Shown: piece by piece, positions 30,868 through 31,185 of the stretch
Position numbering within the stretch: the stretch's first letter is position 1
How the letters are laid out: each line of letters begins with the position of its first letter
DNA from: Escherichia phage BUCT823
Direction: 5' to 3' (one strand)
Sequence record: PQ729991.1
Length of the DNA: 40,637 nt
The notes under the pieces: model-generated
Told to the model about the DNA's origin: nothing
What the model saw: the letters and a program-made list of their open reading frames with translations, nothing else
Database searches by the model: none
Made by a program: the position numbers and the translations under genes

Positions 30868-31117
30868 GTTTCTCCTTTCTCGATAAGTAAAGCCCCGCCA
30901 TAAAGCGGGGCGCTAGTCCTTATCATTTAAACATAGAAACGGCGTAATCTCAGTAAACCAGTTACTTTTTACACAAGCAATAGAGTATGGCCCTTCCGAA
31001 CGCGTCAGCGTAACTACACTCGGACTTAACGTCCGGCTCCGTTACCTGCCACGCCGCGGTCGCTTGTTCATACTTCACAAGCTCAGGTGGAGCTTAGCAC
31101 ATTTTTGGTGAAAAGTC

Positions 31118-31133
31118 AACTATTCGAATAGTT
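31118..31133. repeat. perfect 16-bp palindrome AACTATTCGAATAGTT (half-site of the promoter palindrome family in inverted arrangement)
   Basis: read directly; lies in a ~270-bp non-coding stretch upstream of the 31186 promoter. Confidence 0.7.
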
Positions 31134-31185
31134 TATTCCAACATTTACAATTGAGTGGAATAACCGGAATACATAAACAAATAGT

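Follow-up and report, generated by a model that had tools for sequence, protein, structure and literature searches.

The stretch at 30868-31185 of Escherichia phage BUCT823 (PQ729991.1), a Kagunavirus (Guernseyvirinae) siphophage, is probably, though by no means certainly, the control region and cis-acting leader of a late operon, the minus-strand unit that carries the Rz/Rz1 (spanin), scaffold, capsid, neck and tail genes from 30867 to ~25001. Coordinates refer to the window, the whole 40,637-nt stretch of DNA that was analysed. The grounds for this reading are the non-coding status of the stretch, its conservation, its promoter and array architecture, and the covariation and strand of the encoded RNA. 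Sequence comparison indicates that three elements are common to all three Guernseyvirinae lineages: a minus-strand promoter, here called P(Rz), a short-repeat array on its upstream side, and a leader that extends to the Rz ribosome-binding site. The initial annotation of this DNA is thereby supported in part. Its regulatory hub is borne out as a regulatory region between two divergent promoters and its suggestion of an RNA locus is matched by a structured minus-strand RNA, but both the minus-strand promoter and the covarying leader had been overlooked.

The 374 bp between the start codons of Rz and of the adjacent plus-strand moron gene match 180 phage records at 90-100% identity; the phage names point to Escherichia, Salmonella, Raoultella and Shigella hosts, among others. 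Shigella phage phiSD1, whose record is the reverse complement, is 100% identical over 30700-31400; over the window as a whole the two are not colinear. For comparison of the non-coding block, 48 loci were fetched via the Rz protein. From ~31165 to the Rz ATG the Kagunavirus-type loci are 92-98% identical, and in four of them this holds although the Rz gene itself is only 72-79% identical. The block starts at ~31165 irrespective of what lies upstream, which is a class-B promoter (see below) with a moron in some phages and another cassette ending in a terminator in others; in moron-less relatives it again starts directly after a terminator. Diverged homologues of the block occur in Jerseyvirus-type loci (Rz 60-65% identical) and in a third lineage, related to Salmonella phage vB_STM-ZS.

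The absence of a convincing open reading frame (ORF), already stated in the initial annotation, is confirmed. The sole notable ORF has 38 codons and a GTG start (36-39 codons in relatives), and some records annotate it as a hypothetical protein. Its start and N-terminus are not conserved and shift with a 1-nt indel, and the frame is broken in four sequences (L041, L053, L067 and L098). Codon variants within the Kagunavirus type are 12 non-synonymous and 2 synonymous, and changes at codon positions 1/2/3 number 9/4/3, so that first positions change most. By these patterns the ORF is under no protein-level selection, and the frame, start-codon and substitution tests together speak against a small protein. 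They also indicate that the hypothetical proteins called over the leader hairpin in OM272052, MK737937, PQ474795 and other records are mis-calls. A scan of the stretch for tRNA and tmRNA returned none, and a search of it against Rfam 15 gave nothing at the gathering threshold. Under permissive settings the best Rfam match was wcaG (15.7 bits against a threshold of 42) and the others had E > 0.9; the sub-threshold wcaG and manA-II matches were taken as chance.

P(Rz), with the pattern TTGACT-17-TGcTAAGCT, combines the features of an extended -10 promoter: a -35-like hexamer, a spacer within 16-18 bp, the TG at -15/-14, and T-12, A-11 and T-7 in the -10 hexamer. The pattern has a single match in the whole window. 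Both hexamers and the TG are invariant over ~40 distinct sequences from relatives, in which the spacer varies and the n of TGn takes all four bases (C/A/G/T). In the Jerseyvirus type TAGACT is separated from TACGCT by a 17-bp spacer of unrelated sequence that carries TGy; in the third lineage the 17 bp between TGGACT and TAACCT carry TGA (TGGACT..TGATAACCT). Because hexamers and TG are conserved over a diverged spacer, P(Rz) is read as an extended -10 sigma-70 promoter, with a predicted transcription start near 31084. On the minus strand from 30867 to 25001 no promoter better than chance was found. Since the preceding minus-strand operon is closed by the terminator at 31757-31777, P(Rz) is the only candidate promoter for the Rz-to-tail operon. 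A TTGACA at 30343-30338 was considered as a promoter of the scaffold gene and rejected, being without a -10 and not kept in Jerseyvirus Ent3.

Folded over the length between the predicted start and the Rz ATG, the minus-strand RNA is more stable than all 200 shuffles (minimum free energy, MFE, z = -3.2). An RNAalifold consensus on 41 sequences yields five helices. Its 30 pairs are paired in 98.6% of cells, and 8 of them are changed on both sides; when the partners are slid by 1-3 columns as a control, pairing drops to 33-51%. The covariation score is 0.209, against at most 0.042 in the slid controls. Compensatory changes thus exceed the controls, as in a conserved structured RNA, though in few independent lineages; the covariation that supports the five helices is confined to the comparison of Kagunavirus- with Jerseyvirus-type sequences. 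In five pairs G-U predominates, and these would be A-C mismatches on the opposite strand; therefore the structure belongs to the minus-strand RNA.

The closing helix, P1, has 8 pairs, of which 2 are changed on both sides (G-C to U-A, A-U to C-G) and 3 show compatible one-sided changes. It brings the 5′ end of the leader beside the sequence just before the Shine-Dalgarno motif (AAGGAG, 30877-30872), which is followed by the Rz ATG at 30867. Within the leader lies a long irregular hairpin whose apical stems are misaligned by MAFFT, so that its 21 distinct variants were folded one by one; all share one architecture, built from 7 different apical stems and 4 versions of the middle helix, and a small hairpin sits in the 3′ arm right after the apical stem. 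Besides the unpaired motifs of Table 1, the consensus fold leaves the conserved GAUUnCGCCGU without pairing partners; the third lineage also has CGGAAGGG and a related motif, UUCGGG. The terminal hairpin has 8 bp in the window, 7 of them GC pairs, with the tail TTTACTTATC. It is terminator-like only in the Kagunavirus type, the tail being not U-rich in the Jerseyvirus type (UUAGCGUAU; TTAGCGTAT) or the third lineage; the stem itself carries compensatory changes, from C-G to G-C in the Jerseyvirus type and to U-A in locus L064. Because the U-tract is missing in two lineages, termination is apparently not the conserved role of this hairpin, and because P1 reaches past it, the read-through RNA appears to be under selection.

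Right before the -35 hexamer lies the array TATTCC-N2-TTATTCC-N16/17-GGAATA-N3-TATTC-N6, whose spacing is fixed in the three lineages. The complete pattern is present in 39 of 49 distinct sequences, the remainder being off by single bases. As judged from these alignments, what is conserved in it is the pair of TATTCC direct repeats and the inverted repeat GGAATA-N3-TATTC, which overlaps the palindrome described below. GGAATA occurs in 3 copies in each of two intergenic regions, the present gap and that between Rz1 and scaffold, and in 34 copies in the whole window. A cluster of it at the place upstream of Rz is the only such cluster in the Ent3 genome. The inverted repeat has a second exact copy upstream of scaffold (Table 1) and a third near-copy (GGAATAATTTATGC / GGCATAAATTATTC, 28459-28473) at the junction of a small post-capsid gene and a head-tail adaptor gene; all three fall within the one late operon. 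Two further groupings of these half-sites may be due to chance: GGAATA x3 within the portal gene (34086-34146), and three GAATAG with one overlapping GGAATA in the lysis-gene region (39347-39434).

The array is consistent with binding by a phage-encoded regulator, for which the HTH_17 protein is a candidate. This early 56-amino acid protein is 88% identical between BUCT823 and Ent3, with an identical helix-turn-helix, and such conservation fits an array common to both phages. The 71-amino acid Cro-like HTH_3 repressor is 51% identical between them, a divergence that fits their differing early operators (GAATAGTnnnCTATTC vs TAATAGnnnnnCTATTA). In Klebsiella phage VLCpiS11a (L099) no HTH_17 homologue was detectable at the gene compared, and the place of the array holds another repeat, TTGCGAG x6, which recurs only in the early region of that phage. 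Of its 14 genome copies, 12 fall in two clusters (35684-35899 and 5036-5280); the cluster upstream of Rz includes an 18-bp perfect palindrome (CTCGCAAAATTTTGCGAG), and the other lies beside the primase-helicase gene. A screen for late regulators against Pfam (10) and PHROGs (20 small ORFs), covering 27 distinct ORFs, found no Q- or N-like protein and yielded only HTH_3, HTH_17, DUF551 and families of unknown function, among them phrog_268, which covers the ORFs of 86 and 57 amino acids labelled NinH family in the GenBank record. Sites for IHF, Fis, ArgR, RcsAB, DnaA and TyrR, compared with the region by eye only, gave no fit.

Table 1. Features of the control region, the leader and their surroundings in the window.
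Feature	Position	Strand	Description
P(Rz), predicted sigma-70 extended -10 promoter	31119..31091	minus	-35 TTGACT 31119-31114; 17-bp spacer; TG 31099-31098; -10 TAAGCT 31096-31091
Core site, inverted repeat GGAATA-AAC-TATTC	31126..31139	minus	Centre ~-48; exact match; 6 bp 5′ of -35 in all three lineages
Direct repeats TATTCC-GG-TTATTCC	31157..31171	minus	Centres ~-85 and ~-76; upstream edge of conserved block; spacing same in three lineages
Second exact GGAATA-N3-TATTC	30344-30357, within 30344..30362	minus	Rz1-scaffold intergenic region, 5′ of scaffold; holds the 12-mer of the initial annotation
Perfect 16-bp palindrome AACTATTCGAATAGTT	31118..31133		Centre ~-41.5; overlaps -35 hexamer by 2 bp
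Operator-like site GAAAAGTcaaCTATTC	31110..31125	plus	1 mismatch to GAATAGTNNNCTATT; covers -35 of minus-strand promoter
Structured 5′ leader RNA, ~215 nt, of the Rz/Rz1-scaffold-capsid operon	30868..31084	minus	MFE, RNAalifold, covariation
Closing helix P1	31081-31072 with 30888-30879	minus	CUUGUGAAGU with ACUUAUCGAG; 3′ strand abuts Shine-Dalgarno
Long irregular hairpin domain	30996..31060	minus	Basal helix, middle helix, purine-rich internal loop, apical 5-6 bp stem and tetraloop
Unpaired conserved motifs	30975..31000	minus	UUCGGAAGGGCC 31000-30989; CUAUUGCUU 30983-30975; near-invariant Kagunavirus/Jerseyvirus alignment columns
Terminal GC hairpin	30892..30911	minus	GCCCCGC-UUUAU-GGCGGGGC, then UUUACUUAU; flagged by terminator scan
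38-codon ORF, GTG start	31078..30962	minus	Overlaps leader hairpin; judged non-coding
Class-B early-type promoter	31186..31216	plus	-35 TTGCGC, operator TAATAGGGTACTATTC, -10 TACTAT 31210-31215; repeat families D10, I1-I3, motif scan
Class A promoter TTGACA-N17-TATAGT	5281, 7397, 10884	plus	
Moron gene 1	31242..31343	plus	33-amino acid hydrophobic peptide
Moron gene 2	31340..31684	plus	114-amino acid predicted lipoprotein, lipobox LSGC, phrog_13472
Strong bidirectional terminator	31757-31777		Closes upstream minus-strand operon
Terminator of Rz-to-tail operon	24996-24977	minus	
Early non-coding unit	2209-1920	minus	Promoter TTGACA-17-TAAGAT 2209-2181; ~270 nt without credible ORF

The sequence features on which the initial annotation rested are real and can be read directly. 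The palindrome AACTATTCGAATAGTT equals its own reverse complement, both copies of the 12-mer TTATTCCAACAT are present (31133-31144 and 30351-30362), and the half-site CAACTATTC recurs as described, except that its end had been placed one position too high (30369-30377, not 30378). Their number is another matter. AACTATTCGAATAGTT is the sole perfect 16-bp palindrome in the window, and at least one such palindrome occurs in 54% of 200 dinucleotide shuffles, so that by itself it is not beyond chance. The 12-mer has 4 matches with up to 2 mismatches where 2.8 are expected, and simple arithmetic predicts roughly 50 exact 12-mer pairs in 40 kb; its repeat count is within chance. Enrichment is found in the 8-mer AACTATTC (6 vs 1.09 expected, reached in 0 of 100 shuffles), in the operator GAATAGTNNNCTATT (24 vs 2.4) and in the inverted repeat GGAATANNNTATTC (7 vs 0.55). 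The operator motif has already been reported, as the PHIRE consensus tgAATAGTa-ccTATTat-T of phage fBC-Eco01 (PMC9825357).

Among upstream regions fetched via the Rz protein, and hence unbiased towards the palindrome, 31 of 36 of the Kagunavirus type carry it, as against 0 of 9 of the Jerseyvirus type and 0 of 4 of the third lineage. The six bases before the -35 are GAATAG in the Kagunavirus type, creating the palindrome, AAAAAG in the Jerseyvirus type and CAAAAG in the third lineage. A scan of relatives, which the initial annotation had proposed, therefore finds the palindrome kept in the first group and absent from the other two, and on this comparison it is a genus-specific elaboration and not part of the conserved core. 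It had also been described as the promoter half-site in head-to-head arrangement. The GAATAG half-site is indeed common to the genome-wide operator, but the order is opposite and the half-sites abut, whereas the operator has two inverted GAATAGT half-sites ~10 bp apart, centre to centre, within a promoter. Part of the palindrome combines with the flanking ACTTTTC into the operator-like site over the -35 (Table 1), which is nearly invariant in Kagunavirus-type relatives and absent in the Jerseyvirus type; in Kagunaviruses the Cro-like repressor may act here too.

The operator is found inside two promoter types. Class A is listed in Table 1; class B is TTGCRC-N17/18-TACTAT and reads towards the TACTATTCA side. 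The class-B element at 31186, which the initial annotation had called a promoter, has a ribosome-binding site and the ATG at 31242 downstream. Its reading as a plus-strand promoter is backed by the same element at 22625, followed by AGGAG and an ATG within ~30 nt, and by relatives, in which an ATG with a ribosome-binding site always lies downstream of the class-B element despite differing genes. The 31186 element is thus the predicted promoter of the two moron genes (31242..31343 and 31340..31684). A reverse reading of it as the Rz promoter (TCGATA-18-TATATT) was rejected: relatives that retain the conserved block are without this element, and the orientation is set by a ribosome-binding site and ATG downstream at four sites. 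At 22518-22660 there is another divergent pair, in which the class-B promoter (22625-22656, plus) serves a small membrane protein starting at 22695 and an extended -10 candidate (TGATAGAAT, minus strand) lies ~100 nt 5′ of the gene for the tail assembly chaperone, which starts at 22517.

On the minus strand, the 5′ side of the gap is occupied by the portal, head-morphogenesis and Hoc-like genes, the last of which ends at 31781, and the 3′ side by Rz (30867..30481), Rz1, scaffold, major capsid, neck and major tail genes. The two small moron genes sit between the 31757-31777 terminator and the gap; in most relatives unrelated genes replace this cassette (31242-31684). A hairpin CCGGG-TGG-CCCGG stands ~20 nt 5′ of the scaffold gene (30319-30333), and in Ent3 (L092, ~6520-6540) it is retained and lengthened by compensatory changes (CACCGGG-AGG-CCCGGTG); within the operon it may serve to process or stabilise the RNA.

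The promoter and leader are not confined to the Rz operon. A scan of viral contigs with the 15-mer GCRTTCGGAAGGGCC, in which roughly half of the matches were chance, revealed a paralogous copy in several Kagunavirus genomes (L113, L116, L141, L145, L140, L150, L010, L031, and Golestan, NC_042084.1, 37625-38075, L152). The window phage, scanned for a further copy, has only one. The second copy shares the P(Rz) promoter (TTGACTTTTACTAAGAAATrTGnTAAGCT), the 5′ leader and the UUCGGAAGGGCC..CUAUUG motif, and its hairpin domain is built from a further set of stems. Its 3′ part differs and pairs back to the 5′ end (UGAGCUUG:CAAGCUCA or GUGAAGUA:UACUUCAC); then follow a hairpin with a weak or absent U-tract, a class-B promoter and early leftward genes. 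It is without the TATTCC array and is flanked by the HTH_17 gene on one side and the early leftward genes on the other. In Golestan it lies in the divergent early region, beside the HTH_17 gene that heads the primase-helicase operon. At the equivalent site in its early divergent region, BUCT823 has a non-coding unit (2209-1920) that ends in the good terminator GGGCAGGC-TTAG-GGCCTGCCC-TTTAGTT and is followed by a class-B promoter (1846-1815); its sequence differs from the leader, and its 3′ part resembles the second copies of other Kagunaviruses. The second copy resembles a recombinant of the 5′ half of the late leader and the 3′ half of the early unit, joined near CTATTG.

From these elements a transcription start, protein binding to the array and the identity of that protein, a direction of regulation and a mode of action of the leader are inferred. 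Host sigma-70 RNA polymerase would start at the extended -10 promoter and transcribe leftwards from ~31084. The TATTCC/GGAATA half-sites (-41 to -87), placed between P(Rz) and the divergent plus-strand moron promoter, would be the platform for a sequence-specific regulator that times or tunes P(Rz). The first ~215 nt of the transcript would form a compact domain in which a closing helix ties the 5′ end to the sequence just before the ribosome-binding site, and this leader may act in cis through mRNA stability, through partial attenuation at the terminal hairpin or through presentation of the ribosome-binding site. The analysis leans towards an array that sets the timing of the late copy or limits it, rather than one needed for activity, because the core promoter of the early copy apparently functions with no array and the -35 here is overlapped by an operator-like site.

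Several observations weigh against assigning the stretch to a late promoter and cis-acting leader. The -10, TAAGCT, matches the consensus at 3 of 6 positions only, and P(Rz) was for this reason missed by a generic promoter scan. Independent covariation events are few, being mainly the Kagunavirus/Jerseyvirus split, with some variants within groups and the paralogous copies. The third lineage has the motifs but a differing RNAalifold fold, so that no common structure is claimed with it. The second copy has its own promoter downstream, and a leader role is less obviously needed there. Finally, the Kagunavirus-type terminal hairpin scores as an intrinsic terminator, which would fit a discrete RNA of ~195 nt equally well.

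Such an RNA would be the product of a stand-alone small RNA (sRNA) gene, in which P(Rz) makes a trans-acting transcript ending at 30911-30892 and Rz and the head genes are expressed by leak-through only. A promoter, a structured RNA and a terminator-like hairpin are the classical layout of such a gene; the conserved unpaired motifs are possible seed regions, and the second copy in some relatives precedes a separate promoter for the next genes. An sRNA gene is nevertheless unlikely, given that P1 uses covarying sequence 3′ of the hairpin, that the U-tract is absent in two lineages and weak or absent in second copies, and that essential head genes would have no other promoter. It is quite improbable that the RNA is a cis-acting processive antitermination module like put of HK022 (or lambda nut with a protein), letting polymerase pass 30911-30892 and later terminators. 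The layout is compatible, a conserved promoter-proximal RNA standing directly before a terminator-like hairpin and ahead of essential genes, and some genomes have two copies with identical promoters in two operons, as with putL/putR. Yet no likeness in sequence or structure to put or nut (boxA/boxB) is apparent, two lineages have a hairpin that does not look like a terminator, the 27 small ORFs scanned include no Q- or N-like protein, and the window phage has a single copy. The duplication in relatives raises the appeal of both ideas, and a tentative, distinctly less probable alternative to the late control region and leader unites them. Here Guernseyvirinae would possess an undescribed family of promoter-coupled RNA modules, each an identical extended -10 promoter with a covarying ~70-nt hairpin domain and the UUCGGAAGGGCC/CUAUUG motif, in which the RNA is the active regulator (put-like or sRNA) and the array makes the late copy conditional.

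The initial annotation had suggested other functions too, among them a high-affinity operator. That the 16-bp palindrome binds a Cro-like repressor in this way and is the functional heart of the region is very unlikely. Its half-site recurs in the operators that lie within at least 8 phage promoters and in the published consensus (PMC9825357), most Kagunavirus-type relatives keep it, and it abuts the -35, where with its flank it makes a one-mismatch operator. Its order and spacing are nonetheless unlike GAATAGT-N3-ACTATTC, its occurrence is at chance level, and two lineages that keep promoter, array and leader are without it; all that survives of the operator idea, with equally little probability, is an add-on specific to the genus. 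That the region is a replication origin, a pac site or a small protein gene is scarcely credible. The short repeated motifs, the ORF annotated in some records and the recurrence of the Klebsiella relative's repeat beside a primase-helicase gene could be cited for one or another of these. However, GC skew turns at ~2 kb and ~13 kb and not at 31 kb, and the region lies inside the structural module, so that the origin-like site of the initial annotation finds no support in location or skew (an AT-rich unwinding element was not looked for); the ORF fails the coding tests, and the G-U covariation points to RNA.

Kagunaviruses and Jerseyviruses are widely isolated for therapy against E. coli K1, uropathogenic E. 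coli and Salmonella, and how their structural and lysis genes are switched on is undescribed. A literature search found no description of P(Rz) or of the leader RNA, only the report of the PHIRE motif and a gene-level RNA sequencing (RNA-seq) study, which gives gene-level classes only for a Kagunavirus (PMC12645636). The present analysis places what is probably the sole promoter of the spanin-scaffold-capsid operon and defines a conserved putative protein-binding array and a covarying leader that is absent from Rfam and occurs in two copies in some genomes. The leader RNA is a candidate for a new RNA family and would correct hypothetical-protein calls in several GenBank records. The region is a useful rather than a revolutionary find. 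The kinds of element are ordinary (a promoter, an operator array, a structured leader); for this specific RNA family, its duplication and the conserved array no earlier description is apparent.

P(Rz) resembles extended -10 promoters of E. coli and its phages in its TTGACT, its 17-bp spacer and an invariant TG, placed one base ahead of a -10 in which T-12, A-11 and T-7 are retained. It differs from them in its weak -10 (TAAGCT, TACGCT, TAACCT), in the conserved 50-bp upstream array and in a start that is predicted. In phage phi29, p4 sites between the divergent promoters A2c/A2b and A3 govern the early/late switch. That switch also has repeated sites between divergent promoters of different temporal class and is the nearest analogue for the possible action of the array; here, however, there is no p4 homologue and the motif is different. 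The phage's own Cro/CI-type operators (GAATAGT-N3-ACTATTC) share the GAATAG half-site and have a one-mismatch relative over the -35, but in the palindrome the half-sites are swapped and abutting, and the array uses GGAATA/TATTCC with other spacings. Like the PR′-6S RNA-tR′ leader of lambda, the present unit has a promoter, a non-coding RNA of ~200 nt and a terminator-like hairpin before lysis and structural genes, and like putL/putR of HK022 it is found in two copies in two operons in some relatives. In contrast to both, no similarity to Q, N or put was found, in two lineages the hairpin does not resemble a terminator, and the closing helix extends past it to the ribosome-binding site. The leader is also comparable to structured leaders that stabilise their mRNA, such as the long, untranslated and highly structured 5′ untranslated region of ompA, whose 5′ end is held in a helix within a few nt of the start. 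The leader described here is much longer than that of ompA and has conserved unpaired motifs as well as a paralogous copy, features that point to a role of greater specificity.

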